A stretch of 64,000 bases of DNA, from NCBI GenBank assembly GCA_934119965.1, contig CAKOTA010000006.1, positions 3,933 through 67,932 of the forward strand, read 5' to 3'. Of the stretch, positions 41,590 through 63,510 are shown piece by piece. The translations under genes were made by a program, and so were the position numbers. Each line of letters begins with the position of its first letter. Position 1 is the first letter of the stretch. This stretch comes from an uncultured Bacilli bacterium. Its GTDB lineage: Bacteria > Bacillota_I > Bacilli_A > RF39 > UBA660. A model generated the notes under the pieces. The model saw nothing but the letters and a program-made list of their open reading frames with translations, searched no databases and was not told the DNA's origin.

Positions 41590-41595
41590 AGTTTG

Positions 41596-43178: not shown

Positions 43179-43179
43179 T

Positions 43180-46137: not shown

Positions 46138-46166
46138 ATGTTATTCAGAAGATTTATGAAATTAAC

Positions 46167-46607: not shown

Positions 46608-46696
46608 AAAAATCTTAGTATTAATTTTAACATTTCTAATCGGAGAATTATTAGGAAGTTATTTAAACCAATTTATAAATGGTATCTGCTGTATAT

Positions 46697-46721
46697 AAAA
46701 AGTCTAAAAATAGACTTTTTT
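46697..46721 (+). terminator. Intrinsic terminator closing the bacteriocin locus
   Basis: AAAAGTCTA/TAGACTTTT stem plus a T run. Confidence 0.65.
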
Positions 46722-46798
46722 CTTTATAAATAAAGAAAAATGTTGAAAAATAAAAATAAAAGTGTTATACTATCAGTAGTCGAGAAGGGAGGGATATC

Positions 46799-46993
46799 GT
46801 GACAAAAGTAATCGTTAAAAATGGAAATGTTGAAGGTGCATTAAGAGTTGTAAAACAAAAAAGTGCAAAAGATGGTTCCTCTAAAAAACTTCGTGAAAGA
46901 CAAGAAGGTTATATGAAACCTGGTGTAAAAAGAAGATTAGCAAAAAAAGAAGCTATAAAAAATAGTAGAAGAAGACAAAGAGAAAATTATTAA
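46799..46993 (+). CDS. rpsU: 30S ribosomal protein S21
   Basis: 64-aa basic protein ...ERQEGYMKPGVKRRLAKKEAIKNSRRR. GTG start after GGGAGGG. Confidence 0.9.
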   Translation: MTKVIVKNGNVEGALRVVKQKSAKDGSSKKLRERQEGYMKPGVKRRLAKKEAIKNSRRRQRENY

Positions 46994-47028
46994 GAGCTTT
47001 ATAGCTCTTTTATTGAAAGGAAATATAT

Positions 47029-47472
47029 ATGAGAGAAAGAATATTTGAAGATTTAAAAAATGCAATGAAAAATCAAGATAAAGATTTATTAGCTGTTATT
47101 CGTATGGTAAAAGGTGCTATATCATTAGAAGAAATTAATAAAAAAAGAGAATTAACTGATGATGAAATAATCGATGTAATCAGTAAACAAATAAAAACTA
47201 GAAAAGAATCAATTCTTGAATTTGAAAAAGGCAATCGTAATGATTTAGTAGAAAAAACACAATCTGAAATTGAAATACTAAATAAATATATGCCTGAACA
47301 ACTTAGTATGGATGAAGTAAATAAAAAAATAGAAGAAGCATTTGAAGAAATAAAACCAACTGGTATGTCTGATATGGGAAAAATAATGGGTAAAGTTACA
47401 CCAATATTTAGAGGAAAAGCAGATATGTCATTAGTTAGCAAGATAATAAAAGATAAACTTTCAAATATTTAA
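47029..47472 (+). CDS. yqeY: GatB/YqeY-domain protein
   Basis: Conserved rpsU-yqeY pairing and a YqeY-like sequence (LKNAMKNQDK...IKTRKES...). Confidence 0.75.
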   Translation: MRERIFEDLKNAMKNQDKDLLAVIRMVKGAISLEEINKKRELTDDEIIDVISKQIKTRKESILEFEKGNRNDLVEKTQSEIEILNKYMPEQLSMDEVNKKIEEAFEEIKPTGMSDMGKIMGKVTPIFRGKADMSLVSKIIKDKLSNI

Positions 47473-47548
47473 TGGCTTTTTTCAAATTTTTCTTTTTTTT
47501 TTACTTAATTTATAGTATAATTGTATTTAGATTATAGGGGATGATATT

Positions 47549-48793
47549 GTGAAATATGTCTATACAAGCATTGATATTGGCTCTGATTCTGTTAAGGTAG
47601 TTGTCTCAGAACTATTTCAAGGTAAATTAAACTTATTAGCAGCATCTTCTGTTAAATCTAAAGGAATAAAAAAGGGATTAATCGTTGATGGAAAAGAAGC
47701 AAGTTCATCATTAAAAAAAGCATTGAATGATGTTGAACAAATGCTAGGGTTCAAAATTAACAGAGTAATAGCAACTGTACCAAACTATTTTTCCGAATTT
47801 GTTATTATAAAGGGAAGTATTGACTTAAATCCAGATATGGAAATAAATGGACAAGATATTGTTAAAGTATTTGGAGAAGCAATGAAATCTAAAGATAAAG
47901 GTAACAAAGAAATGGTAACAATTATTCCTATTGATTTTACAGTTGATAATGAAACAGGAATTAAAGATCCAAAAGGAAAACACGGTAGTAAACTATCAAC
48001 TCGTTCTGTAATGGTGCTTACACCTAAGAAAAATATTTTGTCGGTAGTAAGTTTACTAGAAAATATGGGACTTGAAGTAATTGATGTTACATTAAATAGT
48101 ATTGGTGATGTTAATTCAATTAAAGATAAAGTTGTTAAAGAAAAAGTAGGAGCTGTAATTAATATTGGACATGAAACTACTTCAATATCTTTATATAATA
48201 AAGGAATTATTGTTAATAACTCAATGATTAGTGTTGGTGGAAAAAATGTAGATAGCGATATTGCCTATATATATAAACTAAAACCAGAAGATGCTAGAAT
48301 GGTAAAAGAAAATTTTGCGCTTGCTCATAAAAAATATGCAAGTAAAACTGATTACTATGAAGTAACTAATAAATTAGGTGAAGATATAAAAATCAACCAA
48401 TTTGAAGTTTCTGAAGTAGTACAAGCAAGATTAGAAGAAATATTAGTTTTAGCAAGAAAAGAAATAAATGTTTTGACAAATCGTGAAGTTGATTATATAC
48501 TAATAACTGGTGGAACTAGTAGTATGAATAATTTTTCCATAATTGCAGAAGATGTTTTAAGTGAAAAAGCAAGAGTAACAGACATTCATCTTATAGGACT
48601 TAGAAATAATAAATTCTCAGCTGCAGTTGGAAATATTGCTTATTTTATAAGTAAACAAAAATTAAAGGGAAAATATTTTTCACTAATTAGTAGAGATGAT
48701 ATGGAAGCTTTATCATCTACTAAAAAAAATTTAATAAATATTTCAAATGAATCAATGTTAGGAAAAGTATTTGGTTACTTTTTCAACGAATAG
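47549..48793 (+). CDS. ftsA: Cell division protein FtsA
   Basis: Actin-fold motifs ([17 protein letters not shown]) directly upstream of ftsZ. Confidence 0.9.
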
Positions 48794-48804
48794 GGAGGAT
48801 TATT

Positions 48805-49869
48805 ATGTTTGGATTGGAAATGGATCAATTAGCTAAGATTAAAGTTATTGGTGTTGGTGGCGGTGGAAATAATGCCGTTAATAGAATGATTGAATCAGGA
48901 GTTAAAGGAGTAGAATTTATAGTAGCAAATACAGATTTACAAGTATTAAATAATTCTAAAGCTCCAGTCAAAATACAAATAGGTGCTGAATTAACAAGTG
49001 GATTAGGTGCTGGAGGAAAACCTGAAATTGGTAAAGAATCTGCATTAGAATCAAGAAATGAAATTGAATCTGCTTTACAAGGTGCTGATATGGTATTCAT
49101 AACTTGTGGTATGGGTGGAGGAACTGGTACAGGTGCTGCTCCAGTTGTTGCTGATATAGCTCAAGGAATGGGTGCTTTAACAGTAGGTATTGTTACTAAA
49201 CCATTCTCATTCGAAGGTAAAAAAAGAATGGATCAAGCTTTAGCTGGATTAGATGAATTGAAAAAACATGTCGATACTTTAATTGTTATTCCAAATGATA
49301 AATTAAGAGAAATTATTGATAAATCAACACCATTATTAGAATCATTCAAAGAAGTAGATAATGTTTTAAGAAGAGGTGTTCAATCAATATCTGACTTAAT
49401 AGCTGTATCAGGATTAATTAACTTGGATTTTGCTGATGTTAAAGCTGTAATGGAAAAAAGAGGAAATGCCCTTATTGGAATTGGTATGGGTGTTGGTGAA
49501 AATAGAGCTACTGAAGCTGCAAGAGAAGCTGTTTCTAGTCCATTATTAGAAACAAGTATTAGTGGAGCTACTGATGCAATTATTAATGTAACGGGTGGTG
49601 CTAATTTAACTTTATTCGAAGTTGAAGAAGCCGCTGAAGTAATTAGAGCAAGTGCTAATACTGATATTAATACAATATTTGGAGCTGTAATTAATGAAAA
49701 TTTAAATGATGAAATTATTGTTACTGTTATAGCAACTGGATTTGAAGAGAAAAAAGATGAAATGCAACATGCTTATGTAGCTGAAGAAAAGAAAGAAGTA
49801 TTCAGTTCAGATGATGACGATGATGATGATTCAGATTTACCTCCAATTTTAAGAAAAAGAGTATTCTAA
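48805..49869 (+). CDS. ftsZ: Cell division protein FtsZ
   Basis: [13 protein letters not shown] and [10 protein letters not shown] tubulin signature. Poly-Asp linker and a conserved C-terminal peptide DLPPILRKR. Confidence 0.97.
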
Positions 49870-49947
49870 GAGATTTTATAAAAATCTCTTTTAATTTGAC
49901 AAAATTTTATTTTTTTATATAATATATTTCATTGAAAGGGGAATTAT

Positions 49948-50646
49948 ATGAAAGGTTTTCAAAAAATATATCCATTTACTACTGAATCAATAAGTGGTTA
50001 TATTACAAAAATGGATATAAAAGATAAAATGGTTTTAACACTTGGTTCTTCATGTGATCAAGCATTAAATAGTTTATTATTAGGAGCAAAGGATGTTACT
50101 ATTTTTGATATTAATGAACAGGTTAAGAATTTTTACGAATTGAAAAGGAAATTAATATTGTCCACATCTAGAGAAGATTTGAGAGAAAAACTGATTAATG
50201 AATTAAATAGCAAAGATTTTTTGTATTTTAATGAAATATTTTTAAATGATAGTTTAATAAAAATGAATTTATATTTACAAAATGATGAAAATTATAATAA
50301 ATTAAGAAATATCTTAAAAGAAAAGAAAATCAATTTTATAGTTGGTGATATATTTAATGTGACTGAGTATTCTAAGTTGAATCAAAAATACGACCGAGTT
50401 ATTTTATCCAATGTTTTAGATTATCTTCCTACTGATTTAGACAAAAGTAAAAAAGTTTTTGATATATATAAAGGACTTTCACAACACTTAAATGAAGAAT
50501 CATTAATTCAATTATATTATTTATATGGCACACTTTTTTCTAATGATTTTATTAAAGTTGTGAATAGATTTTTAGATTATAATATTTTATTTGAAAAAAT
50601 CCCTTGTGACGAAGAAGATTCGGCAATATTTGTAAAAAAGAAATAA
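49948..50646 (+). CDS. Rossmann-fold SAM-dependent methyltransferase-like protein (DUF3419-like?)
   Basis: VLTLGSSCDQALNSLLLGAKDVTIFDIN resembles SAM-binding motif I plus an acidic loop. Weak. Confidence 0.35.
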   Translation: MKGFQKIYPFTTESISGYITKMDIKDKMVLTLGSSCDQALNSLLLGAKDVTIFDINEQVKNFYELKRKLILSTSREDLREKLINELNSKDFLYFNEIFLNDSLIKMNLYLQNDENYNKLRNILKEKKINFIVGDIFNVTEYSKLNQKYDRVILSNVLDYLPTDLDKSKKVFDIYKGLSQHLNEESLIQLYYLYGTLFSNDFIKVVNRFLDYNILFEKIPCDEEDSAIFVKKK

Positions 50647-50718
50647 ATATGTTAAAGTATATTGACATTTTTAAATTCTAGGAGTATTATCAATTTAATA
50701 TTTTATTTGGAGGTACTT

Positions 50719-50814
50719 ATGGTAAATGAAATTATAAAAAAATGTTTATTAGAATCATTTACAAATGAAATCACTTGTATTGATTTTCTATGTGCTTCTT
50801 TAATAAAACGATAG
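50719..50814 (+). CDS. Small Cys-containing ORF (31 aa) upstream of rel
   Basis: Not in the track. GGAGGT RBS 5 nt upstream. Sequence MVNEIIKKCLLESFTNEITCIDFLCASLIKR. Its stop codon is embedded in a terminator-like hairpin. Confidence 0.35.
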   Translation: MVNEIIKKCLLESFTNEITCIDFLCASLIKR

Positions 50815-50847
50815 GCTGTAAATATTTTGCGCGCTTATCGTTTTTTT
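50806..50847 (+). terminator. Terminator/attenuator-like hairpin in the rel leader
   Basis: AAACGATA (50806-13) pairs with TATCGTTT (50836-43), followed by a T run to 50847. Confidence 0.45.
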
Positions 50848-50867
50848 GTTATATACGGAGGTGTTTT

Positions 50868-52313
50868 ATGAATCAAGTTGAAGAACTAAAAGTTAAATTA
50901 TTTGAAAATATTAAAGAATATAATGAGGAAGAGACTAATAATGTTTTAAAAGCATTTGAATTTGCTAATGAATTACATAAAGGCGTTTACCGTCAAAGTG
51001 GTGACCCTTATATAACACATCCTTTAGAAGTAGCAATTATTTTATCAGAAATGCATGCTGATAGAGATACTATTTGTGCGGGATTACTTCATGATACAAT
51101 TGAAGATACAAATATTACTAAAGAAGATATAGCTGAAGCTTTTAATAAAGATGTTGCGAAATTAGTTGACGGAGTTACCAAAATAAGTAAACTTAATTTT
51201 TCAAATAAACAAGAACAAAATGTTGCAAACACAAGAAAAATAATTACTAGTATCACTGATGATGTAAGAATTGTTATAATTAAATTGGCAGATAGGTTAC
51301 ATAATATGCGAACATTACAATTTAAAAGTGAATTTAAACAAAAAGAAAATTCAATGGAAACAATGGATATATTTGTGCCACTTGCTTATTATATTGGAGC
51401 TTATAGAATTAAAAGTGAATTAGAGGATTTATCACTACAATATTTATATCCTGATAAATACAAAAAATTAGAAGAAGTAAAAATAAAAATTGAAAATGAA
51501 AGTTCTAATTGTTTAAAAGAAATGTATGAAAATATAAATTGTATTTTAAATAATAGAGATATACCACATGAAATTAAAATAAGAACTAAAAATATTTATG
51601 GTATTTATAAAAGATTAGAACAAGGACATAAAATATCTGATATTCATGATCTTTTAGCGCTTAAAGTAATGGTTGATGATATAGCAAATTGTTATCAAAC
51701 ATTAGGTTTAATTCATTCTCAATATCATCCTATTAATGACAAATTTAAAGATTACATTTATAATCCAAAAACTAATATGTATAGATCACTTCATACTACA
51801 GTGTTTGGTGAAGATAATAGACTTGTTCAAACACAAATTAGAACATTTAATATGGATAAAGTTGCTTCATTTGGACTTACTGCATATTGGGATATTGAAA
51901 AAGGAAATGCTAGAAATGTAATGCAAGATGATTTAAAAAATAAATATCAATTCTTTAAATCATTAATTGAAATAAATCGTGTTTTTGGAGATAATCAAGA
52001 ATTTGTAAGGCAAGTAAAAAATGAACTTTTTACTGATAGAATATATGTATATACAACTAAGGGAGAAATAGTTGAACTACCAATTGGTTCTACAGCAATT
52101 GATTTTGCTTATAAAATTCATTCTGATTTAGGTAATACAATGGTTTCAGCAATTGTAAATGATAAGGTTGTTGAACCAGACTATGTATTGCATAATAAGG
52201 ATAGGGTAAGAATTATAACTGATATTATGTCATATGGACCAAGAGAAGAGTGGATAAATAAAGTTCAAACTACTAAAGCAAAAAGAAAGATAAAGGAGTT
52301 TAATAGAAAATAA
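50868..52313 (+). CDS. rel: Bifunctional (p)ppGpp synthetase/hydrolase Rel, short form ending just after the TGS domain
   Basis: HD domain (HDTIEDT), synthetase domain (YRSLHTTV) and TGS domain. The ATG at 50868 follows GGAGGTG; the track start at 50790 lies inside the leader terminator. Confidence 0.85.
   Translation: MNQVEELKVKLFENIKEYNEEETNNVLKAFEFANELHKGVYRQSGDPYITHPLEVAIILSEMHADRDTICAGLLHDTIEDTNITKEDIAEAFNKDVAKLVDGVTKISKLNFSNKQEQNVANTRKIITSITDDVRIVIIKLADRLHNMRTLQFKSEFKQKENSMETMDIFVPLAYYIGAYRIKSELEDLSLQYLYPDKYKKLEEVKIKIENESSNCLKEMYENINCILNNRDIPHEIKIRTKNIYGIYKRLEQGHKISDIHDLLALKVMVDDIANCYQTLGLIHSQYHPINDKFKDYIYNPKTNMYRSLHTTVFGEDNRLVQTQIRTFNMDKVASFGLTAYWDIEKGNARNVMQDDLKNKYQFFKSLIEINRVFGDNQEFVRQVKNELFTDRIYVYTTKGEIVELPIGSTAIDFAYKIHSDLGNTMVSAIVNDKVVEPDYVLHNKDRVRIITDIMSYGPREEWINKVQTTKAKRKIKEFNRK
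51927..52310 (+). repeat. Direct repeat copy 1 (3' end of intact rel)
   Basis: 384 bp recurring at 60099-60482 (constant offset 8172), with only a handful of substitutions by eye. Confidence 0.9.
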
Positions 52314-52765
52314 TGAATAAAGTGATTTATATAGATTTCGATGGCGTACTTGTTGATACTCCAAAATTTATAAATGAAGAGCTAAAAATAAATGGAAATT
52401 CAGAAGAAACTTGCAAAAATTTTCATTGGGATTATTTTTTAAAAAATTGTAATGAAATAGAAAATAATTTAACAGTTTTAAAAAAAATATCGCAAAAAAA
52501 TAAAGTCGTAATTTTAACACATGTTTATTCAGACAATGAAAAATTAGCTAAAGAGAAGTTTATTTTTGAAAAACTAAATAATATAAAGATTATTGCAGTT
52601 CCTTATTATATAGATAAAAATATAATTGTTAATCCAAAAGATAATATTTTAATTGATGATTATAGTAATAATATTGATAAATGGATAAATTCAGGTGGTA
52701 TAGGAATACAATTTAAAAACGAAAAAAGAATAGATAAATTATTAATTGATTACATAAGAATTTAA
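52313..52765 (+). CDS. HAD-superfamily phosphatase (5'(3')-deoxyribonucleotidase-like)
   Basis: YIDFDGVLVD (DxDG motif I) and IDD late motif. The ATG overlaps the rel stop (TAATG). Confidence 0.55.
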   Translation: MNKVIYIDFDGVLVDTPKFINEELKINGNSEETCKNFHWDYFLKNCNEIENNLTVLKKISQKNKVVILTHVYSDNEKLAKEKFIFEKLNNIKIIAVPYYIDKNIIVNPKDNILIDDYSNNIDKWINSGGIGIQFKNEKRIDKLLIDYIRI

Positions 52766-52778
52766 GGTGGTGAAAATA

Positions 52779-53657
52779 ATGATATCTTATTATAGTTGTT
52801 TTAATAAAAAAATTTTAATTAATTTATATAAAAAGTCGGATGATATGTTGGATTTTTGGCTAAAAAGATTTTGCCCTAGTATAATTAAAATTCAAGATTC
52901 AGCACAATTAAAAATTGATTTAGAAATTATTGTCGTAAAATCCGAAAAAACAAATTATAGTATAAAAAATAATAAAATATTTTTATTTGGAAATATAAGA
53001 GATAATATAAGCTATATTGCAAAATTTGTAACACAATGTTTTCAAAAATTATTAATAGAAGAAAATATTTTAATAATTCCAGCATCATGTGTCTCAAAAA
53101 AAAATAAAGCGTTACTTGTAATAGGTGATTTTTGGCAAGGAAAAACTTCTTCAGCATTAAATATCTCATCTAAATATAAGTGTAATTTAATATCAGACAA
53201 TTATGTTGCTATTAAAGATGGTTATATTATAGGAGCCACAAGTTTTATATCAGTAAGGAAAGAAGATATTAAAGATAAAACCAATCCCATATTTTTTAGC
53301 ATTAATGATAGATATTTTTATAATAATAAATATTTCTATGATAGTAATTTAAAGATAATTGGATTTATGTTACCATATATTAATAAAGGAGATAATAATA
53401 TTCATTACATATCAAAGGAAGAATCTTATTGGTATTTATATCAAAAATTTTCAAGATTATTATGTGGCGAAACGATTTTATTTGATGGAAAATTGCCATC
53501 ACCAATGTTTTTAAATAAGAGTAATTCAAAAACAATTTTAAAAATTGTAGATGAATTACTAATTAGCAATAGCATAAAATATGTTTCTGCTCCAATGGAT
53601 ATTATAACAAACGAAGGAAACAAAATATTATGTGATGGAGATGATAATAATGAATAA
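52779..53657 (+). CDS. HprK C-terminal-domain-like protein with degenerate P-loop
   Basis: IPASCVSKKNKALLVIGDFWQGKTSSALNISSKYKCNLISDNYVAI parallels the HprK pattern H(A/G)S.V...G.G.L..G.SG.GKS..AL.L......L.(A/S)DD. Confidence 0.45.
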   Translation: MISYYSCFNKKILINLYKKSDDMLDFWLKRFCPSIIKIQDSAQLKIDLEIIVVKSEKTNYSIKNNKIFLFGNIRDNISYIAKFVTQCFQKLLIEENILIIPASCVSKKNKALLVIGDFWQGKTSSALNISSKYKCNLISDNYVAIKDGYIIGATSFISVRKEDIKDKTNPIFFSINDRYFYNNKYFYDSNLKIIGFMLPYINKGDNNIHYISKEESYWYLYQKFSRLLCGETILFDGKLPSPMFLNKSNSKTILKIVDELLISNSIKYVSAPMDIITNEGNKILCDGDDNNE

Positions 53658-54672
53658 GGATTTTAATTTTATTGTAAAATTAACAACCGGTTGTCCTGGA
53701 AATTGTAAGTGTTGCCGCGATAGACAAGAAAACTTTAAATTAAAAAATGAAAAAAATAGTATTTTTGATATAAATATTTTTGAAAAAATATGTAAGAATA
53801 TAAAAAAATTAAACGGATCGTATGTATGCATTTCTGGCGGAGAGCCAACTATGGTAAGAAATATTGATGATTATATAAAAATAGCAAAAAAATACGAATT
53901 AGCGACAAGAATAAATACAAATGGATGGAATGTCACAAAAGACAATTTAGAATGTTGGTTAAAAAATGGATTAGATCAAATTGTTTTATCAATATATGGG
54001 TTAGATGAAAAGAGTATTATTGAGACCAGAGGTAATAGATTTATTTTTGATAAAAGTATGAGGGCTATTGAAGTTATAAAAGAACTAAGAAAAAAATATA
54101 AATTTATATTTATTATTCAAACTATAATAATGAAAGAAAATTATAAGCAAATGCCAGAATTACTTAATTACTCAATTGATAGTAATGTAAATTTATTTTG
54201 GCCTTCATATTTGGAAGATGCAATTAATTTACCAGAAATAAGGTTGAGTACTGAAGAAATAAGTGATTTCAAAAATAATATAATTCCAAATATGAAAAAA
54301 ATAATTGATGAAAAAGTTATGGATAATAAGATAAAAGAGAATATTATGAAATCATTAGATAGTTATTATAATGATGGTACAAAGTTATATCAATACCATA
54401 AAGAAAATGAGAATTGTCATTGGAGCGGTAAACATTTCACATTTTATCCTAATGGGACAATAGATCCATGTCCTGGTCATGAATATTTTAAGAGTAAATA
54501 TCAATTTAAAATAAATTATAATGAGATTGATGAGTTTATGAAATTAGAAAATTTAACTAAATGTAAAAATGTATGTTTTGATTATTGTAAGTATTGTCCA
54601 CAAGGTGTTCATCACGAAATATCATTTATGCCTGTTTCATTTAATGAACATGATAGTAAAGAGGAAATTTAA
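53650..54672 (+). CDS. Radical SAM enzyme with C-terminal SPASM/twitch-like Cys cluster
   Basis: CPGNCKCC contains CxxxCxxC near the N-terminus. GGEP motif. C-terminal CHWSG...DPCPGHE...CKNVCFDYCKYCPQG. It overlaps the upstream gene by 8 nt. Confidence 0.7.
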   Translation: MNKDFNFIVKLTTGCPGNCKCCRDRQENFKLKNEKNSIFDINIFEKICKNIKKLNGSYVCISGGEPTMVRNIDDYIKIAKKYELATRINTNGWNVTKDNLECWLKNGLDQIVLSIYGLDEKSIIETRGNRFIFDKSMRAIEVIKELRKKYKFIFIIQTIIMKENYKQMPELLNYSIDSNVNLFWPSYLEDAINLPEIRLSTEEISDFKNNIIPNMKKIIDEKVMDNKIKENIMKSLDSYYNDGTKLYQYHKENENCHWSGKHFTFYPNGTIDPCPGHEYFKSKYQFKINYNEIDEFMKLENLTKCKNVCFDYCKYCPQGVHHEISFMPVSFNEHDSKEEI

Positions 54673-56007
54673 ATGATATATACTACCGAAGAAAATAGGT
54701 ATTTATCATACAATACACCTTTAATAGAATATATTAGGTCAAAACATTTATATACAAACGAAAATCTGATGTATACAAAAAAATATTCTGATGGTACATT
54801 TTCAATAACAAAGCCTACAGAAATATTTACAAATTGTGAGTTTATCAATGGATATCCACATTTTCAAATACCACTTTCAAAATGTATAGAAGAAATTGAG
54901 TTTTTTATAACAGGTGAAAAAATGTATGATAATAATTTTTATATTAGATATGGTGATACTCATCCACATAAATGTATCCCTAAATTGGCACAAGTAAGAA
55001 ATTTAGTTATAGAAAATTCTTTATCAAATATGATAGGCAAAAATGTAAAAAGTTTTTACGGCTTTGGAGACATAAGTTTGAAATCATTAAAGGATTTTAT
55101 TGAAAAATATCATATAAATATGACACCCAATGAAATGTTTATAATGCTTGTTAATAATAATATATCTAATGATATTTTGAAAAAATTAGAGGAATATGAT
55201 TTATCAGCCTTAAAACAAATTTTTATTTTTTTAAGACAGTTAAGATTAGTTCCGAAAGAATTTTTAGTTGAATCGAAACTATACTCAAATCAAAATTTAT
55301 ATAGATCATTAAAGAGTAATCCAAATTTTACAGAAGAATTAAAAAAAAATGGAGAATTGAAATATTCACTACAAGAGTTAATATTTATTAATTCAATTTT
55401 AGATAATAATGATGATGTATTATTTAATATTATAGGTGCAAATCAAAATTCACATGTATTAAAAGTAGAAGAATTGTTAAAAGGAAATTATGATTTGAGA
55501 GGTAGATTTTTAACATATGAAATATGTAGAAATGCAGATGAACGTGATATTAATTTATGGTCTGAAAAGTTAAATAAGTTTATTGAAAAAAATAATTTAG
55601 AAATAAGTGGTGATAATCTTGATTACCAAGATTTATTAAAAATATTAATGATAATTAATAGTAATGATGTAATTATTGATTATGACAAATTAGATAAGTA
55701 TAAAAACAATATTAGAAAATTTACTAATATTGTTACAAGTATAGATGGTATAAATAATAAAAAAAATATTAATTCTGGTAATGATTTAATTTATAAAATG
55801 GCATTAGTTTGTTATAATTTAAATAGATCTATTGAAATGGGAAATCAAAGTAATTTTTACAGATACTTAATTGTTGTAGTTGATGAATATGAAAATAATA
55901 AAGATAAATATATTAATATTCAAGGACTGTATAAAGAATTTTTGATTAAGTGTTTAGATAGACTGGGGTATAAAAAGAAAGATAAAATAAAGGAGTTGAA
56001 AAAATGA
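54673..56007 (+). CDS. Hypothetical 444-aa protein
   Basis: Long ORF abutting the rSAM stop. No motif recognised. Confidence 0.5.
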   Translation: MIYTTEENRYLSYNTPLIEYIRSKHLYTNENLMYTKKYSDGTFSITKPTEIFTNCEFINGYPHFQIPLSKCIEEIEFFITGEKMYDNNFYIRYGDTHPHKCIPKLAQVRNLVIENSLSNMIGKNVKSFYGFGDISLKSLKDFIEKYHINMTPNEMFIMLVNNNISNDILKKLEEYDLSALKQIFIFLRQLRLVPKEFLVESKLYSNQNLYRSLKSNPNFTEELKKNGELKYSLQELIFINSILDNNDDVLFNIIGANQNSHVLKVEELLKGNYDLRGRFLTYEICRNADERDINLWSEKLNKFIEKNNLEISGDNLDYQDLLKILMIINSNDVIIDYDKLDKYKNNIRKFTNIVTSIDGINNKKNINSGNDLIYKMALVCYNLNRSIEMGNQSNFYRYLIVVVDEYENNKDKYINIQGLYKEFLIKCLDRLGYKKKDKIKELKK

Positions 56008-56978
56008 TTTATCCTAAAAAAGTAAATAAAAATGATATAATAGAAATAATTTCACCATCAAATGGTGTGAAAAGTAAAAAAATACAAAAAATCGAAAAAG
56101 CAGTAGAAAAATTAAATAATTATGGATATAAGGTAGTTGAAGATAGATATGTAAGAAATACTGAAAATGGCGTTAGTTCATCTGCATTTAATCGATCAGT
56201 TGAACTAAACAACGCAATTAAGAATAAAGAAGTAAGAGCCTTAATTGCATGTTCAGGTGGAGATTATTTAGTTCAAATTATGGGTTTAATAAGTTTTGAT
56301 CAATTTAAAAAAAATATAAAATGGATACAAGGTCAATCCGATATTACACCTTTGTTATTTTATATAACAACTAAATTAGATGTTGCAACAATTTATAGTT
56401 TTAATGCCAAATCTTTTGGTGATGATAATTTACCAGAATCAATGATAAAAAATAACATGGAATTTTTAAGTGGAAAAATGCCGAAACAAATTGAATATGG
56501 ATATAAAATAGATGATGATAAAATAGAACAACCATGGGAGTGTATAACAGAGGATAGAGAATTTAAAGGAAGAATTATAGGAGGATGCTTAGATTCATTA
56601 AAAGATATAATAGGGACAAAATATGATTGTGTAAAAAATTTTATAAATAAATATAATGAAGATGGAATAATTTGGTATTTTGATGTGGCGGAAATGACAA
56701 ATGAAGATATATTAAGAACAATGTGGCAATTTAAAAATGCCGGGTGGTTTATAGGGTGTAAAGGTATTTTATTTGGAAGAATAGAAAATGAAATTAATTA
56801 TACAGGCATAACACTAAAAGATGCAGTTAATTATAATCTTTTTGATTTAAATATTCCAATTTTTATAAATACAGATATAGGACACACGAATCCAGTATAT
56901 ACATTAATTAATGGTTCAATTGTAAGAGTTACTAAAAATAAAGATAATAAGCATATTATGGAGACAATTTTTGAATGA
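56004..56978 (+). CDS. S66-family serine peptidase (LD-carboxypeptidase LdcA / MccF-like)
   Basis: GQSDITPL (nucleophile elbow GxSD), C-terminal DIGHTNP (catalytic His) and SGGDY. Overlaps both neighbouring genes by 4 nt. Confidence 0.7.
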   Translation: MIYPKKVNKNDIIEIISPSNGVKSKKIQKIEKAVEKLNNYGYKVVEDRYVRNTENGVSSSAFNRSVELNNAIKNKEVRALIACSGGDYLVQIMGLISFDQFKKNIKWIQGQSDITPLLFYITTKLDVATIYSFNAKSFGDDNLPESMIKNNMEFLSGKMPKQIEYGYKIDDDKIEQPWECITEDREFKGRIIGGCLDSLKDIIGTKYDCVKNFINKYNEDGIIWYFDVAEMTNEDILRTMWQFKNAGWFIGCKGILFGRIENEINYTGITLKDAVNYNLFDLNIPIFINTDIGHTNPVYTLINGSIVRVTKNKDNKHIMETIFE

Positions 56979-58033
56979 AAATATTAATTGGAATTTGTGG
57001 AATTGGAAATGGACATTTAAGCAGACAGACAAATGTAATAAATTTATTAATGAATAAAAATCATAAAATAGTTATAGTAACTACGAAGAATAATATTAAT
57101 TATTTTAAAAATAAATTTCCAGAGTTTAAAGTATTAGAAATTAGTATTCCATGGATAGCATGCAATTCAACAGGAATTGATTTTGAAACATCTTTAAAAA
57201 AATATCAAGAGGGGAAAATAGATCAATTTTTTGAATTTTTAAAATTTTCTATGAATGTAGAAAATGCATTTTCTGGAGTTCCGGATTTGGTAATTACAGA
57301 TTATGAACCGAATGTTGCTCAATATTCTTATGCAGTTGATATACCTTTAATTTGTATGGAACAGCAATCAAAATTTTTATATTTAAATGAAGTAAAAATA
57401 AGTAATTTCTCAATTTTAGAAGAAAAAAAAAGAATTAATTATTTTTTTCCAAAATACTCGTATAAAGTAATTTCATCTTTTTTTCCAATAACTATAAAAG
57501 AAAAAAATGTTAAAGTGGTTACACCGATTATATCTCCATTAAATGAGATAAAACATAAAAAAAATCATATATTAGTATACTTTTCTCCATATGAAAATTC
57601 AGATAAGTATAAAAAAATAGTAAGAGCATTAGAAGATATACCAAATCGTAATGTAATTGTTTATACAAAGGAAGACTTCGATATTGATTCGAATAACATT
57701 ACATTTAAATCTTATTCTAATGAATTTAAAAACGATCTTGAAAATGCTTACTGTATAATATCTACTGCCGGGCATCAGTTGCTAAGCGAATCTATCTCAA
57801 TTGAAGTGCCAGCATACTTAATACCATTAAGTACATATGAACAAAATTATAATGCTAAAATGATTGAAAAATATGATTTGGGAAAAATATCACATAATAT
57901 AAATGCCGAAGAAATAAATCAATTTATTAAAGAAATACCTTACTATAAGAAAAGAATTATAAAGTTCAAAAATAAATATTATAAAAATAATTGGGAAAAG
58001 AGTTTGTTAGAAATTATTGATACTTTTATGTAA
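56975..58033 (+). CDS. GT-B glycosyltransferase (MurG/GT28-like; MJ1255-type N-terminus)
   Basis: MKILIGICGIGNGHLSRQ N-terminus and a C-terminal nucleotide-sugar-binding-like TAGHQLLSES. Confidence 0.55.
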   Translation: MKILIGICGIGNGHLSRQTNVINLLMNKNHKIVIVTTKNNINYFKNKFPEFKVLEISIPWIACNSTGIDFETSLKKYQEGKIDQFFEFLKFSMNVENAFSGVPDLVITDYEPNVAQYSYAVDIPLICMEQQSKFLYLNEVKISNFSILEEKKRINYFFPKYSYKVISSFFPITIKEKNVKVVTPIISPLNEIKHKKNHILVYFSPYENSDKYKKIVRALEDIPNRNVIVYTKEDFDIDSNNITFKSYSNEFKNDLENAYCIISTAGHQLLSESISIEVPAYLIPLSTYEQNYNAKMIEKYDLGKISHNINAEEINQFIKEIPYYKKRIIKFKNKYYKNNWEKSLLEIIDTFM

Positions 58034-58041
58034 AAAAATGC

Positions 58042-58069
58042 TTGACTTTTAGTAAGGGCTCATTATAAT
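58042..58069 (+). promoter_or_regulatory. Strong sigma-A-type promoter for argS
   Basis: TTGACT (58042-47), a 16-nt spacer, then TATAAT (58064-69). No T-box-sized leader. Confidence 0.6.
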
Positions 58070-58109
58070 ATATGTAAATTAAATTTTGTTAGTGAAAGAG
58101 GGAATTTTT

Positions 58110-59795
58110 ATGTTGAATTTAAAAAAATATATCAAAGAAGAAATAGAAAAGGTAGGTATTCAATTAGATAGCGTTGATGTTGTAAGACCACCTAAAGAGG
58201 AAATGGGTGATTTTACTATACCATGTTTTACTATAAATATGGATGGTATAAATAATCCACATGAAAAAGCAAAAGCTATTTTAGAAAAATTAAATATGAA
58301 TGAAGATATTATTTTAGATACAAAAGTTATAGGACCATACTTAAATTTTACTATTAATAGAGATTTTTTGGCAAAAGAAACATTAGAGACTATTAGTTCA
58401 GAAGGAAATAATTATGGTTCAAGCAGAATTGGAAATGGAAAGGAACTTTTAATTGAGCATACATCAATAAATCCAAATGCTTCACCTCATATTGGTAGAT
58501 CAAGAAACAGTATTATAGGAGATTTTTTAGTTCGACTATATAAATTTGAAGGTTATAATGTTGAAGCAAATTATTTTATAAATGATATTGGAAAACAAAT
58601 TTCAATGTTATTGGTGGGGGTAGAAAAATTAGGTAATATTGACACTATAGCATTTAGTGATATGCTAAAGTTATATATAGAAATAAATGATATAAGTAAA
58701 ACAGATAAAGAAGTAGAAAAAAAGATCTTCTATTATTTACACGAATTAGAAAATGGAAATGAAGAAGTTAGAGATAAATTTAAGAAAATTACAGATATAT
58801 GTGTTGAAGGACAACAAGAAATATTTAAGAAAATGGATATTAGATGGGATAGATTTACTCATGAATCTGATTTTGTTTTTGAAAATAAAACCACAAAAAT
58901 ATTAGAACGATTAAAAGAAAGAAAAAAATTACATGAAGATGAGAATGGCAGATTATATGTTGACTTGAGTGAATATGATATACCAACAAAATCACCAGTA
59001 TTAGTTCTTACTAGAGAAGACAAAACTTCATTATATCCATTGAGAGATATTGCTTATACTATTTCAAAACTAGAAAGAAATAAAGAAAATAATGTTATTG
59101 TCTTGGGAGAAGATCAAGAAGTCTATATGCAACAAATTGCTGCAACACTAGATATTCTAGGATATACTGCTCCAAAACTTGTCTCATATGATTTTGTTCT
59201 ATTAAATGGTGATAAAATGGCTACTAGAGAAGGAAAAGTTGTCCTACTTGATGAATTTATTGAAAAAGCAAAAGAAAAATTAGCTATGACATTTAAAGAA
59301 AAAGGAACAAATTTATCAAATGATGAAATTGTAGATTTAGCTGCGTCTTGTATTAAATATAACATGTTAAATGTTAATAGAAAAAGAACAGTTAATTTTA
59401 ATTTAGAATCAGCAACAGATTTTCAAGGTAATTCGGCTATTTATCTATTATATAATTATGCAAGAATAAATTCTATTTTAGAAAAGGTAAATTATTGTGG
59501 ATCTGATGAAGATATTTATAAATTTAAAGAAGAATTAGAATATTCATTAATAAATAGTCTATATAAATTTCCAGAAGTTGTAGATAATTCATATAATACT
59601 CAAGAATCAGTAATTATTACCAATTATTTATATGATGTAGCTCAAAAATTTTCAAGATATTATAAAAATATACCTGTATTAAATGAAGAAGACAAATTAG
59701 TAAGACAATCAAGACTCGCATTATTAAATTCAACTAAAACAGTTTTATCAAACGGAATGAAAATTCTTGGAATAAATCCAGTTAAGAAATTATAA
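58110..59795 (+). CDS. argS: Arginine--tRNA ligase
   Basis: N-terminal Arg-tRNA-synthetase add-on domain, SINPNASPHIGRSRN (HIGH region), MATREG (KMSK-like) and a DALR-type C-terminus. The ATG at 58110 follows AGAGGGA. Confidence 0.85.
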   Translation: MLNLKKYIKEEIEKVGIQLDSVDVVRPPKEEMGDFTIPCFTINMDGINNPHEKAKAILEKLNMNEDIILDTKVIGPYLNFTINRDFLAKETLETISSEGNNYGSSRIGNGKELLIEHTSINPNASPHIGRSRNSIIGDFLVRLYKFEGYNVEANYFINDIGKQISMLLVGVEKLGNIDTIAFSDMLKLYIEINDISKTDKEVEKKIFYYLHELENGNEEVRDKFKKITDICVEGQQEIFKKMDIRWDRFTHESDFVFENKTTKILERLKERKKLHEDENGRLYVDLSEYDIPTKSPVLVLTREDKTSLYPLRDIAYTISKLERNKENNVIVLGEDQEVYMQQIAATLDILGYTAPKLVSYDFVLLNGDKMATREGKVVLLDEFIEKAKEKLAMTFKEKGTNLSNDEIVDLAASCIKYNMLNVNRKRTVNFNLESATDFQGNSAIYLLYNYARINSILEKVNYCGSDEDIYKFKEELEYSLINSLYKFPEVVDNSYNTQESVIITNYLYDVAQKFSRYYKNIPVLNEEDKLVRQSRLALLNSTKTVLSNGMKILGINPVKKL

Positions 59796-59799
59796 TAAA

Positions 59800-60098
59800 A
59801 TGAAAATATGTGTTGTTGGCACGGGATATGTTGGCTTTTCTCTACCTGTTCGTCTTAGTGAAAAAAATGATATTGTCGTTTATGATATAGATAAAGAAAA
59901 ATTAATATGATAAATAATAATATAAGTCCATTGAAAATGATGGTATTTATTAATATTTAAATAATAAGAAGCTGAAACTAAAATCCACCCGTAATTATCA
60001 GGTGGATTTTGAAAATTCAAAGTACATTATAATATGTACTCCAATTGATTTTGGCTATAAAACTAATTTGTTTGATACTTCTTCTATTGAAAATATAG
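59800..60098 (+). pseudogene. ugd: Decayed N-terminal part of UDP-glucose 6-dehydrogenase
   Basis: MKICVVGTGYVGFSLPVRLSEKNDIVVYDIDKEKLI then a stop. Further Ugd-like pieces follow in other frames (...IIICTPIDFGYKTNLFDTSSIENI), cut off by repeat copy 2. Confidence 0.7.
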
Positions 60099-60494
60099 GA
60101 TGATTTAAAAAATAAATATCAATTCTTTAAATCATTAATTGAAATAAATCGTGTTTTTGGAGATAATCAAGAATTTGTAAGGCAAGTAAAAAATGAACTT
60201 TTTGCTGATAGAATATATGTATATACAACTAAGGGAGAAATAGTTGAGTTACCAATTGGTTCTACAGCAATTGATTTTGCTTATAAAATTCATTCCGATT
60301 TAGGTAATACAATGGTTTCAGCAATTGTAAATAACAAGACTGTTGAACCAGACTATGTATTGCATAATAAGGATAGGGTAAGAATTATAACAGATATTAT
60401 GTCATATGGACCAAGAGAAGAATGGATAAATAAAGTTCAAACTACTAAAGCAAAAAGAAAGATAAAGGAGTTTAATAGAAAAATCATTGAATAG
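60099..60494 (+). pseudogene. Orphan 3' fragment of rel (direct repeat copy 2: 60099-60482)
   Basis: Encodes DDLKNKYQFF...TGS domain...EFNRKIIE with no 5' part. It differs from copy 1 by a few substitutions and has a 3-residue longer tail. Confidence 0.85.
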
Positions 60495-60526: not shown

Positions 60527-62149
60527 ATGGAAAAAAGAGATATTTTTATAGGTGGTGCATGGCCTTATGCCAATTATTATTTACATGTTGGTCATTTAGC
60601 TGCCTTATTACCTGGAGATATACTTGCAAAATATTTTAGGGGTAAAGGTGATAATGTAATTTATGTGTCTGGTTCTGATTGCCACGGGACACCAATAACT
60701 GAAAGAGCAAAAAAAGAGAATGTTTCTCCAAAAGAAATTGCAACACATTATCACAATGAATTTGTAAAGACATTTAATAATCTTGGTTTTGAATATGATG
60801 AGTATTCAAGCACTATGTCTGAACATCATAAGGAATATGTAGAAGAACAATTTAAAAGGATGTTGGATAATGGTTATATTTATGAAAAGGAAGAACTTCA
60901 AGATTATTGTGAAGAATGCAATTCGTTTTTATCGGATAGAGAAATTGTAGGAGTATGCCCACACTGTGGTGGTAAAAGTACTGGAGACCAATGTGATATA
61001 TGTGGAGATTCTTTAGATAGCAGTGAGGTACTAGATAAACATTGCAAAACTTGTGGGTCTAGTACTATTATGAAAGAAAACAAACATCTTTATTTTAAAT
61101 TAACTGCTTTTGAAAAAACATTACAAGATTTAATTAATCGAAATAAAGAAAAATGGAGAAAAAATGCATTGGGCGAAGCACAAAAATATATTGATATGGG
61201 TTTAGTTGATAGGGCAGCTACTCGTCAATTAGACTGGGGAGTAACTGTACCTGTTGAAGGATATGATGATAAAAGAATTTATGTATGGATAGAGGCGGTA
61301 TTAGGATATTTATCTGTGGGTAAAGAAGTAGCAGAAAAAAGGGGAATAGATTTTGATAAATTTATGTCAAAAGATAATCAAAATTTGAAAACATACTATG
61401 TTCATGGAAAAGATAATATACCATTTCATACAACTATATATCCGGCATTAATTTCTGCTATTAAAAATAATTATAATTTACCAGATTATATTGTTTCATC
61501 AGCATATGTTAATTTGAATAATGAAAAAATGAGTAAATCAAAAGGAAATTTGATTACTGCAAATGAATTACTTGAAATGTTTGACAGAGATACATTGAGA
61601 TTTTATTTTTCATTTAAAGGACCAGAAACTAATGATATGAATTGTTCTTTATCTGATATTATTCAAACACATAATAAGTTTTTAGTTGGAATGTTAGGAA
61701 ATTTTGTAAATAGAAATCTTTCATTTATTAATAAAAAATTTGATGGTAGTATTCAGGAAGCACATATAGATGAGAAGATAAAGGAAGCAACTGAAAAAAG
61801 TTTTAAATTAATTGGTGATTTTTTTGAACGAGGCGAATTAAGAAATGCAGTAACACAAATTTTTGAATATGTAGCAATTGCCAATAAATATTATGATACT
61901 TGTCAACCATGGGTCCAAGTAAAGGAAGATATTAATGCTTTTAATGATACAACATATACTTGTACTTATATGATTGCAAATATGGCAAATATGATAGCTC
62001 CTATATTACCTCATGCTTCACAAAAAATTAAACAAATGTTGGATTTACCTGATTATAAATGGGAGGAAACCAAAATAATAGGTAATTATCAAATTAGAAA
62101 TTTACAAGTTTTATATGATAGAATAGACGAGACAAATTTTAAAATATAA
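60527..62149 (+). CDS. metG: Methionine--tRNA ligase
   Basis: YLHVGH (HIGH), KMSKSKGN and two zinc knuckles (CEECN...CPHCGG, CDICG...CKTCG). Confidence 0.9.
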   Translation: MEKRDIFIGGAWPYANYYLHVGHLAALLPGDILAKYFRGKGDNVIYVSGSDCHGTPITERAKKENVSPKEIATHYHNEFVKTFNNLGFEYDEYSSTMSEHHKEYVEEQFKRMLDNGYIYEKEELQDYCEECNSFLSDREIVGVCPHCGGKSTGDQCDICGDSLDSSEVLDKHCKTCGSSTIMKENKHLYFKLTAFEKTLQDLINRNKEKWRKNALGEAQKYIDMGLVDRAATRQLDWGVTVPVEGYDDKRIYVWIEAVLGYLSVGKEVAEKRGIDFDKFMSKDNQNLKTYYVHGKDNIPFHTTIYPALISAIKNNYNLPDYIVSSAYVNLNNEKMSKSKGNLITANELLEMFDRDTLRFYFSFKGPETNDMNCSLSDIIQTHNKFLVGMLGNFVNRNLSFINKKFDGSIQEAHIDEKIKEATEKSFKLIGDFFERGELRNAVTQIFEYVAIANKYYDTCQPWVQVKEDINAFNDTTYTCTYMIANMANMIAPILPHASQKIKQMLDLPDYKWEETKIIGNYQIRNLQVLYDRIDETNFKI

Positions 62150-62379: not shown

Positions 62380-63510
62380 ATGAGCAACATAATTTTAACT
62401 GGGGATAGACCAACAGGAAGATTACATTTAGGACATTTAGTTGGTTCATTATCTCAAAGAGTTCAATTGCAAAATTCAGGTTCATATGATGAAATGTATA
62501 TAGAAATTGCTGATGCACAAGCAACAACTGATAATTCTGGCAATATTCAAAAAGTAAAAGATAATGTTATAGAGGTTGCACTTGATTATTTATCTTGTGG
62601 ACTCGATCCAAATAAATGTACGATTTTTTTACAATCTGAAGTACCTGAATTAAGTGATTTAACTTTTTATTATATGAATTTAGTAACACTTTCTAGATTA
62701 CAAAGAAATCCAACAATTAAACAAGAAATAATTTATAGAAATTTTGAAAATAGTATTCCGGTTGGTTTTATGACTTATCCAATAAGTCAAGCAGCAGACA
62801 TTACAGCTTTTGATGCTAATATAATTCCTGTTGGAGATGATCAATTACCAATGATTGAACAAACAAGAGAAATAGTTAGAACATTTAATAGATTATATGG
62901 TGAAACTTTGGTTGAACCTAATGCTGTTTTACCTAAGAATACTGTATGTCATAGATTGCCAGGTACTGATGGTCAAGCAAAAATGAGCAAATCAATTGGT
63001 AATTGTATTTACTTGGCCGATAGTAAAGAAGATGTAAAAAGAAAAGTAATGGGGATGTTTACAGATCCAAATCATTTAAGAATAGAAGATCCAGGGGTTA
63101 CTGATGGAAATCCGGTATTTATATATTTAACTGCATTTTCTAAAGAAAAGCATTTTCAGGAATATTTTAAAAATTCTGAAACAGGTAAACTTGAATATAA
63201 TAATTTAGAAGAATTAAAGGCACACTATGAGCATGGCGGTTTAGGGGATATGAAAGTGAAAAAATTTCTAAATTATGTTCTTGAAGATACATTAGCTCCT
63301 ATTAGGGCTAGAAGACATGAATTAGAAAAGCATATTCCTGAGGTGTATCAAATTTTATTTAGTGGTAGTGAAAAAGCTAGAAAAAAAGCTGCTAAAACTT
63401 TAGAAAGAGTAAAAACAGCAATTGGTTTAAATTATAAAAATGATTTTGAATTAATAAATGGACAAGTAGAAAAATATTCAAAATTGCATTCTGAAGAAGA
63501 AAATCAATAA
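62380..63510 (+). CDS. trpS: Tryptophan--tRNA ligase
   Basis: TGDRPTGRLHLGHLVG (HIGH), KMSKS and GxDQ. Confidence 0.9.
   Translation: MSNIILTGDRPTGRLHLGHLVGSLSQRVQLQNSGSYDEMYIEIADAQATTDNSGNIQKVKDNVIEVALDYLSCGLDPNKCTIFLQSEVPELSDLTFYYMNLVTLSRLQRNPTIKQEIIYRNFENSIPVGFMTYPISQAADITAFDANIIPVGDDQLPMIEQTREIVRTFNRLYGETLVEPNAVLPKNTVCHRLPGTDGQAKMSKSIGNCIYLADSKEDVKRKVMGMFTDPNHLRIEDPGVTDGNPVFIYLTAFSKEKHFQEYFKNSETGKLEYNNLEELKAHYEHGGLGDMKVKKFLNYVLEDTLAPIRARRHELEKHIPEVYQILFSGSEKARKKAAKTLERVKTAIGLNYKNDFELINGQVEKYSKLHSEEENQ

Follow-up and report, generated by a model that had tools for sequence, protein, structure and literature searches.

The 3' end of the stringent-response gene rel is present twice in an uncultured gut bacterium of the RF39 type, and the two 384-bp copies are probably the inherited scar of an insertion-duplication in a recombination hot spot downstream of rel. 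The window analyzed here comprises 64,000 nt with a G+C content of about 25% (contig CAKOTA010000006.1 of assembly GCA_934119965.1, forward-strand positions 3,933 to 67,932); its relatives are uncultured 'Bacilli/Tenericutes' gut metagenome-assembled genomes (MAGs). The left copy closes an intact rel gene and the right copy is an orphan rel tail. A group of genes termed module 1 lies between them, and a second group beginning with metG, module 2, follows the orphan tail. All sequence data are metagenome assemblies, and L-numbers designate loci or contigs from relatives or conspecific strains. Type I denotes conspecific strains without the cassette and type II the window lineage with module 1 and module 2. 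The duplication itself is an ordinary recombination scar and as such a known kind of event. Its value lies in a dated, phased natural example of foreign DNA entering an uncultured gut lineage with no dedicated recombinase, beside a conserved anchor gene.

Aligned with each other, the copies at 51927-52310 and 60099-60482 show no gaps, a constant offset of 8172 bp and 10 substitutions (97.4% identity). Coordinates and offset agree with the original prediction, which had been made from the sequence of the window, and all six substitution clusters named there are present in the alignment. In left-copy numbering the differences lie at 52032, 52076/77, 52124, 52161/63/67/68, 52220 and 52250. A repeat of such length and similarity cannot arise by chance. 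The left copy represents the last 128 sense codons of rel and is continuous with the 5' part of the gene in cassette-free conspecific strains. The right copy has an in-frame TAG directly upstream and its first in-frame start codon only at 60312; it is therefore an untranslatable orphan. Among about 90 rel loci of relatives a second rel tail was found only in the window lineage.

Homology had been predicted to end abruptly on both sides, and the flanking sequences bear this out. At the left edge of the repeat rel reads ...ATGCAA/GATGATTT and the remnant of the UDP-glucose 6-dehydrogenase gene (ugd') reads ...AATATAG/GATGATTT, with similarity stopping sharply. At the right edge ...AATAGAAAA/TAATGAAT, the start of the HAD gene, faces ...AATAGAAAA/ATCATTGAATAG, with metG 32 nt further on. 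The left edge of module 1 falls within the TAAT of the rel stop. The ugd gene had been described as a pseudogene cut by the repeat, which is correct: about 96 codons with two 1-nt deletions are left, and in L012 and L091 an intact 386-aa ugd, to which the remnant was aligned, stands directly after argS. The fusion of ugd' to the orphan tail (joint J) reads ugd …ATTGAAAATATA / G / GATGATTT… rel. The base G60098 matches neither parent, and microhomology amounts to at most 1 nt, none of it usable. Overlaps through AAGATG or ATGTAAT were tried as microhomology and rejected, since the predicted junction differs from the observed sequence. Joint J was recovered in four assemblies that are independent in both sample and assembler, namely a 116-kb contig (L081), a SPAdes K77 assembly (L082), a k141 assembly of MEGAHIT style (L083) and a Logan assembly (L084).

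Two candidate signs at the right end of the orphan tail were discarded. The peptide ending NRKIIE is not diagnostic of an abnormality, as Rel C-termini in the family vary by 0-6 residues. Homology of the orphan copy might extend some 15 nt beyond the stop (ATCATTGAATAGTG vs TAATGAATAAAGTG) as a relic of the HAD start, but this requires three indels in 15 AT-rich nt and is indistinguishable from chance.

We compared the window with the conspecific contigs L163, L164 and L165, which were reached through cluster members of the window Rel. L163 and the window share 99.38% identity across 11.3 kb (41036-52314), and similarity ends right after the rel stop. In L163 and L164 homology resumes at 98.7-99.0% at window-equivalent position 68220, which lies about 630 nt into a hybrid histidine-kinase gene past the end of the window. 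Between these points the two type I strains carry 2.6 kb with genes for an alpha/beta-hydrolase (abhydrolase) and an acyltransferase, and the same pair is found at the sister-species loci L001 and L130 (Rel 93-95% identical). Between the same points the window lineage carries about 15.9 kb, consisting of two modules with the orphan tail at their seam. The region from the rel stop to codon ~211 of the hybrid histidine-kinase gene evidently is a recombination hot spot with alternative versions, of which the two-gene form also seen in the sister species is the common one. The original prediction placed its island between an intact rel and an orphan rel tail, and this arrangement stands. Its size of 7.8 kb does not: the variable segment is about twice as long, and the orphan tail lies inside it. 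An empty site in which rel directly adjoins metG had also been expected. It was not found in 80 rel loci, 35 metG loci, exact-protein look-ups, cluster members or the nearest strains, a search that covered GTDB representatives; sampling is finite and this absence is not proof. Two scans of JGI metagenomes with junction and rel-tail patterns also returned no rel-metG, the lineage being absent from JGI contigs. The conspecific order is instead rel-abhydrolase-acyltransferase-histidine kinase. At the right flank of the hot spot L012 shows a hybrid histidine kinase reduced to a 145-aa remnant (11083-11520), in which the N-terminal membrane part is fused to the receiver C-terminus.

Module 1, extending from the HAD gene to ugd', also occurs in other species. 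In L007, L012, L050 and L063 the cassette likewise stands after rel and shares the rel-stop/HAD-start junction sequence with the window. L007 and L012 keep the TAATG overlap; L050 and L063 contain that sequence as well, but their rel runs to a later stop. The gene calls of L137 likewise show overlapping rel and HAD genes, and L003 is a variant with a short spacer. L007, L012 and L050 belong to different species whose rel genes are 79-89% identical, and their cassettes are 98.5-98.8% identical. Between the window and these three loci identity is 86-87% in the cassette and 76-79% in rel; between the window and L137 it is about 90-96% per 200-nt window in the cassette and 77-81% in rel. An identity step at the rel stop was observed in every cassette comparison. 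Module 1 is, on these comparisons, a cassette that is exchanged horizontally between species. We considered whether the last ~40 nt of rel are a conserved cross-species recombination anchor, an idea meant to account for the regular identity step at the rel stop, and dropped it: the majority-base fraction is 0.79-0.82 there and 0.74-0.87 elsewhere in the tail.

These loci also bear on the rel stop. In the original prediction rel had acquired a new stop by fusion to the first island gene. The overlap of rel stop and HAD start (TAATG) is real. The left-copy stop …EFNRK-TAA, by contrast, is the clade-typical Rel ending and is present in the closest island-free strains and in sister species; the claim of an acquired stop is therefore unsupported. 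Nor was the island operon newly placed under the rel promoter, as had been proposed, for the rel-stop/HAD-start overlap is the usual layout of the cassette in at least five other species. In addition, argS in module 1 has its own strong promoter-like site, apart from rel.

The cassette is not tied to rel. In L091 it includes argS and an intact ugd and is not adjacent to rel. Conversely, rel and argS are adjacent without the cassette in L144 and L161, and other content lies between them in L151 and L152. A distant prevalent relative shows the order ArgRS-like gene - X - glycosyltransferase - argS, followed by acetyltransferase - AMP-binding enzyme - histidine kinase - response regulator, a right-hand neighbourhood that is the same as that of the window. 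An IS3 remnant in L050 has taken out argS beyond codon 25, and that argS copy is therefore dispensable there. We observed degenerate fragments of IS3-family or other transposases at the right edge of the cassette in L007 (~9540-10036), L090 (13537-14683) and L132 (6417-6631); in L050 and L090 one transposase fragment deleted argS-ugd, and the window contains no such fragment.

We next consider the origin of the orphan tail. It is 97.4% identical to the rel tail of the window and 96.4-96.6% identical to the tails of L163 and L164, and by this measure it represents a conspecific functional rel allele. Six of the 10 differences between the copies are synonymous, with 76 synonymous vs 308 non-synonymous sites available (binomial P ~0.006, own arithmetic). 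The bias indicates an origin of these differences in functional rel genes rather than through decay on site. L083 equals the window over 8.3 kb save for nine right-copy sites (Table 1), where it matches the left copy; the same applies to L082. In both assemblies the two copies differ at just 1 of 384 sites. Seven of the nine states in this patch match the rel allele of L164/L165 and are interleaved with window-type states, and N432/T434 occur in the full-length Rel variants P0327 and P0332. The orphan copy evidently exchanges sequence with the resident rel through gene conversion, or else with incoming rel alleles, and this exchange with functional alleles would account for the strain differences inside it. 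The rel gene itself is rich in recombination in this species. The rel tails of L163 and L164 differ from that of the window by 1.6-4.4%. Compared with L163, L164 and L165, the rel gene of the window is far more mosaic than its upstream flank, and most of the 49 differences between the window and L163 in 48844-52330 lie in or just upstream of rel. Full-length Rel variants within one 90% cluster display patchwork combinations of substitutions.

The layout of an intact gene, a cargo and an orphan 3' tail of that gene running into native downstream DNA recurs independently at other loci in several relatives (Table 1). In L091 the far joint connects codon ~27 of the gene normally found after ugd with codon ~227 of a 281-aa gene through ~8 nt of microhomology, GAAAAAAA. 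L131/L132 is the closest known relative of the window cassette (91-95% aa identity) and contains a 174-bp rel-tail relic in front of the HAD gene, which marks it as a descendant of a rel-adjacent cassette copy. With the kinase tail of L096 and the rel-tail relic of L143 included, the layout is known from four or more loci, and this recurrence suggests that RF39 gains genes by a preferred route. Repeats in L005 and L006 were also considered as the same architecture but turned out to be paralogous small genes or unclear.

How could the duplication have arisen? Two molecules would have been brought together, a chromosome with 'rel end + module 2' and DNA with 'rel end + module 1', or the same with the roles exchanged. 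One step would be a single illegitimate, microhomology-free joint of ugd codon ~96 to rel codon 380, which can be read directly in the sequence; the other would be a single exchange at or near the rel stop codon. Since both rel tails are conspecific alleles, the partners would belong to the same species or even to the same cell, and the homologous end of the exchange cannot be located. As the route we give tentative preference to one-sided homology-facilitated illegitimate recombination of a linear fragment, in either polarity, with the cassette-bearing or the metG-bearing version as donor. Homology-facilitated illegitimate recombination is documented for transformable bacteria and combines one homologous exchange with one illegitimate joint of 0-10 nt microhomology (PMC6382021). 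The loci described here may be comparable in that foreign DNA stands beside a conserved anchor gene without a dedicated recombinase, with ~8 nt of microhomology at the joint of L091 and none at that of the window.

Several points weigh against an insertion-duplication of this kind. Neither presumed parent, rel-metG or rel-module 1-intact ugd-…-histidine kinase, was found in the species, which is the main weakness of any model. In the laboratory homology-facilitated illegitimate recombination reportedly tends to delete rather than duplicate recipient DNA. The boundary between orphan tail and metG may be a second novel joint, or else a native variant: the tail ending …NRKIIE-TAG adjoins a short metG leader of 32 nt with a -10-like box and a ribosome-binding site, whereas metG leaders of relatives measure at least 100 nt, and a Rel ending in NRKIIE is absent from 120 Rel homologues. 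Finally, the near-identity of the copies in L082 and L083 also fits copying within one genome.

An insertion-duplication might also have proceeded through a circle of about 8.2 kb, closed by the ugd'/rel joint and comprising rel codons 380-507 and module 1, which entered the rel tail of a rel-metG chromosome by one RecA-mediated crossover of the Campbell type. The product topology is exactly as predicted by such an event, the crossover would be efficient given that both tails are conspecific alleles, and the bracketed layout at three other genes suggests a repeatable route. Insertion-duplication by non-replicating plasmids with a chromosomal fragment is the obvious parallel: the insert lies between direct repeats of one contiguous segment, the left copy is joined to the 5' part of the gene and the right copy to downstream DNA, and there is one novel closure joint (60098/60099). 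Nevertheless we rate this route as somewhat less likely than the linear one. Among relatives and conspecific strains no rel-metG empty site was detected, and the source of the circle must be a conspecific strain with rel-module 1, none of which was sampled. Unlike in the plasmid case, no vector, replicon or circular form is known for the cassette, nor is there any sign of it outside chromosomes, and the circle would itself need an earlier illegitimate event. Moreover, short-read contigs cannot tell a circle junction from an integrated joint. Of the proposal that circular or linear DNA had recombined into rel, the topology of a single-crossover product is retained, its empty site is not, and a circle becomes only one of several routes. 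Because the repeats flank the 8,172-bp unit, this unit can in principle loop out.

An origin within one genome is improbable in our estimate. It would take either a tandem duplication of the 8,172-bp unit by unequal illegitimate exchange (ugd codon 96 x rel codon 380) with subsequent deletion of the second cargo up to the metG promoter, or a ugd-metG deletion patched by a templated copy of the rel tail. The single difference between the copies in L082 and L083 is in line with this, as are the two abrupt joints that bound the orphan, the one to metG giving an unseen Rel ending and a shortened metG leader. However, two independent illegitimate events are demanded, one of them coincidentally exactly at the rel stop; an extra import step is needed for the states of other functional rel alleles, with their synonymous bias, in the orphan; and recurrence at serS, the 281-aa gene and the histidine kinase is left unexplained.

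We assign next to no probability to an assembly artefact, in which two coexisting strains (rel-island and rel-metG) were threaded into one contig or the repeat was expanded. The metagenomic nature of all data could raise this concern, as could the several contigs that break exactly k or k-1 bases before the end of the repeat and the fact that, where the copies are identical, short reads fit a circle plus empty site equally well. For L082 and L083, whose copies are nearly identical, short-read contigs indeed cannot separate the integrated unit from circle plus empty site. At ugd'/rel, however, there is no shared k-mer to cause a false join, yet the joint was recovered from four samples by k141, K77 and Logan assemblies, and the ugd remnant bears frameshifts of its own. 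L081 differs from the window by 2 bases in 19.3 kb, and the exact Rel protein with the same neighbours is encoded on three contigs of 50-200 kb. The longest difference-free stretch between the copies is 105 nt, less than k=141; therefore, in the window as in L081, each copy is linked by overlapping 141-mers to the sequence on either side. On these sequence data the integrated configuration can be taken as proven for the window strain. Where contigs begin exactly 77, 141 or 30 bases short of the end of a repeat copy, the assembly was interrupted by a genuine repeat. The strain-chimeric assembly that had been offered as the alternative was not borne out, given the four assemblies with joint J and the differences that phase both copies. 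In practice, repeats of this kind break short-read assemblies or make them impossible to phase.

A site-specific integrative island (prophage-like or an integrative and conjugative element, ICE) with the repeats as attL/attR would match the direct repeats, the movement between species and the position, which is precisely the 3' terminus of a conserved gene, but is hardly credible, since neither the unit nor its flanks encode an integrase, recombinase or transposase domain, the 384-bp repeats are imperfect, other rel-adjacent cassettes lack a second rel tail, repeats elsewhere are tails of different genes (249, 394+308 and 518 bp), and viral, plasmid and phage collections gave no match. The domain search used Pfam and NCBIfam for all cassette ORFs and precomputed Pfam matches for ~20 kb on each side. 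Known integrase islands at 3' gene ends (ICEs, prophages, SCCmec-like elements) also leave the target gene intact; here, unlike there, the repeats are hundreds of bp long and vary in length and identity from site to site. The locus further resembles replacement islands such as capsule and O-antigen loci exchanged via their flanks: the flanks are 99.4% identical, the content between rel and the histidine kinase is wholly different, and cassettes are 98.5-98.8% identical between species. It differs from them in that two alternative contents are concatenated, with a duplicated piece of the left flank marking the seam.

A further reading would make the orphan tails working parts, not incidental scars, of integrase-free cassette movement in RF39 gut bacteria, in which a circle loops out by homologous recombination and re-enters related genomes by a single crossover into the same gene. 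The sites would be rel, serS, the histidine kinase and the 281-aa gene, and the cargo preferentially argS, metG, trpS and the ArgRS-like/MccF-like operon. We consider this a long shot. If true, the operon of ArgRS-like pseudo-synthetase and MccF-like peptidase might make or resist a synthetase inhibitor of the aminoacyl-nucleotide type.

Table 1. Features of the rel region in the window and related arrangements at other loci (locus given where coordinates are not those of the window).
Feature	Coordinates	Strand	Remarks
rel	50868-52313	+	short RelA/SpoT homologue, 481 aa; HD, synthetase and TGS domains; intact
Left repeat copy	51927-52310	+	rel codons 380-507 (numbering of the 50790 open reading frame, ORF); linker and TGS domain to last sense codon
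HAD/NT5C-like phosphatase, 150 aa	52313-52765	+	weak Pfam matches NT5C, HAD_SAK_2; ATG overlaps rel stop (TAATG)
P-loop kinase-like protein, 292 aa	52779-53657	+	PEPCK/HprK-type fold; no Pfam family
Radical SAM enzyme, 340 aa	53650-54672	+	Pfam Radical_SAM 5e-15
ArgRS-like paralogue, 444 aa	54673-56007	+	class I synthetase fold; HIGH motif replaced by P-K-L-A-Q, KMSKS region lost
S66 peptidase, MccF-like, 324 aa	56004-56978	+	Pfam Peptidase_S66 and S66C
MJ1255/VC2487-family glycosyltransferase, 352 aa	56975-58033	+	Pfam Glyco_trans_1_3 2e-34, full length; TIGR00661 7.5e-34
Promoter-like site before argS	58042-58069	+	TTGACT-16-TATAAT, 11/12; consensus match only
argS, canonical arginyl-tRNA synthetase, 561 aa	58110-59795	+	TIGR00456 443.8 bits (cut-off 262)
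ugd', 5' remnant of UDP-glucose 6-dehydrogenase gene	59801-60098	+	~96 codons, two 1-nt deletions, cut at joint J
Illegitimate joint J	60098-60099		ugd codon ~96 fused to rel codon 380
Right repeat copy, orphan rel tail	60099-60494	+	repeat to 60482, frame on to TAG 60492-60494 (…NRKIIE-stop)
Stretch with all 10 copy differences	60204-60422	+	orphan copy; 9 at 60248-60422 (= left-copy 52076-52250)
metG	60527-62149	+	Pfam/NCBIfam; first gene of module 2
Stand-alone SYY_C protein, 70 aa	62149-62361	+	only C-terminal (S4-like) TyrRS domain matched; overlaps metG stop
trpS	62380-63510	+	Pfam/NCBIfam
Cassette in L091	4196-4443 / 13987-14235 (L091)		same cassette, 249-bp repeats, 99.6%; tail of 281-aa gene and following promoter
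Cassette in L131/L132	6293-7048 (L131) with 6632-7318 (L132)		cassette downstream of serS; 394-bp serS tail (92.9%) and 308 bp intergenic (88%)
metG cassette in L096	4181-4696 / 7641-8156 (L096)		after hybrid histidine kinase; 518-bp duplicated kinase tail, 95.8%
rel-tail relic in L143	8729-8878 (L143)		150 bp, fused to unrelated ORF start; directly upstream of argS

The rel start at 50868 was taken from gene calls on near-identical contigs, and a promoter-like site with 11/12 consensus matches lies upstream at 50662-50690. The protein matches the Pfam families HD_4, RelA_SpoT and TGS and reaches 524.8 bits against TIGR00691 (cut-off 499), covering positions 1-450 of the 687 profile positions. 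It ends about 30 residues after TGS, and the C-terminal regulatory domains (helical, ZFD/CC, ACT/RRM) are absent. Because the close homologues are without exception of similar length (476-497 aa, nearly all 476-485), the short Rel evidently is a clade trait and not a truncation caused by the duplication event.

The module 1 genes from HAD to glycosyltransferase are tightly packed or overlapping, followed by a 76-nt spacer before argS. In distant relatives only the core of ArgRS-like gene, glycosyltransferase and ArgRS is kept. For the 292-aa protein the AF2 model (pLDDT 90.6) gave PEP carboxykinases as top Foldseek matches (E 3e-10); its match to HprK_rel_B is weak, and none of the 85 clusters of its family is named. 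All matches of the radical SAM enzyme to NCBIfam models of SPASM-type maturases were sub-threshold. Among solved structures SuiB comes nearest, with a weak match to the cytosylglucuronate decarboxylase BlsE as well, and PADLOC defence-system models returned generic viperin-like radical SAM matches only. The S66 peptidase is closest to the solved sequences 5usd (an unnamed Peptidase S66) and MccF-like BA_5613, both with E 2.5e-19, then to Lmo1638 and MccF, and contains the motifs GQSDIT and DIGHT. Its nearest characterised relatives by sequence are therefore of the MccF type rather than LdcA.

The 444-aa protein has no sequence match in Pfam, NCBIfam or PDB. Its AF2 model (pLDDT 90.5, pTM 0.90) combines a class I Rossmann catalytic domain with a helical anticodon-binding domain in an ArgRS-like arrangement, and the 15 best Foldseek matches in PDB are all ArgRS (probability 1.0, TMq 0.52-0.69). 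Alignment of the family with the ArgRS of the window by hhalign is weak but colinear over 274 columns and places an invariant P-K-L-A-Q opposite P-H-I-G-R of ArgRS, with no conserved motif of the KMSKS type. We read the protein, on its predicted structure, as an ArgRS-derived paralogue with altered chemistry and not as an ordinary synthetase. The family comprises about 125 clusters without a functional name. Its members were always seen near a glycosyltransferase and a canonical argS (window, L138-L141 and L146), and the family also occurs in a prevalent gut species seen on 140 contigs.

Paralogues of aminoacyl-tRNA synthetases such as MshC, which derives from CysRS, and GluQ-RS have been recruited as ligases or tRNA modifiers. 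The cargo may resemble these and the MccF immunity peptidases in placing an ArgRS-fold protein with non-canonical motifs beside an MccF-like S66 peptidase, together with a glycosyltransferase, ugd and a canonical ArgRS. It differs in that the sequence of the 444-aa protein places it in no described family. Speculatively, the cargo, the nucleotidase-like HAD protein included, suggests sugar-, nucleotide- and arginine-linked chemistry, and its product may be a modified aminoacyl-nucleoside, or the cargo may confer resistance to one. With its undescribed ArgRS-fold family set beside an MccF-like peptidase, the cassette offers a testable lead to new chemistry or to a means of resisting synthetase inhibitors.

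The hot spot beside rel gathers xenologous aminoacyl-tRNA synthetase genes. The ArgRS of the window is 92-93% identical to the copies in L007, L012 and L091; protein-cluster searches returned no ArgRS above 93.6% identity outside the window lineage, and the window contains no second argS. The MetRS is a singleton at 90% identity among ~15 billion proteins and occurs only on contigs of this arrangement. Its best match (88%) was observed in a genome whose Rel is only 67% identical. By its sequence metG looks xenologous, possibly a second metG. The type I strains were sampled several times without these MetRS and ArgRS, and their own synthetases are therefore different genes. The cargo is on this evidence of foreign origin. 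Beyond trpS, module 2 continues, according to the gene order in L085, with an acetyltransferase, an S51 peptidase, an AMP-binding enzyme and the first ~630 nt of the hybrid histidine-kinase gene. Rfam searches of 49-64 kb gave nothing, hence no T-box leaders.

A stand-alone SYY_C was also observed beside trpS-like genes in several relatives. In L006, a circular long-read MAG, two 99.9% identical trpS copies (11497-12597 and 14228-15328) stand directly after rel, and a third, distant trpS-like gene lies close by. This is a further indication that duplication or relocation of synthetase genes takes place around rel in the clade.

Elsewhere in the window, 1874-2919 consists of three tandem copies of a 349-bp unit (95% matches), to which one stretch of ~335 bp each in L001 and L130 is homologous at 87-88% identity. 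A bacteriocin-like locus at 44146-46607 comprises a C39-peptidase ABC exporter, across whose gene G+C falls to ~17%, and then three small ORFs, two of which encode double-glycine leaders (…QIEAGG/IGWG… and …RINGG/SITA…).

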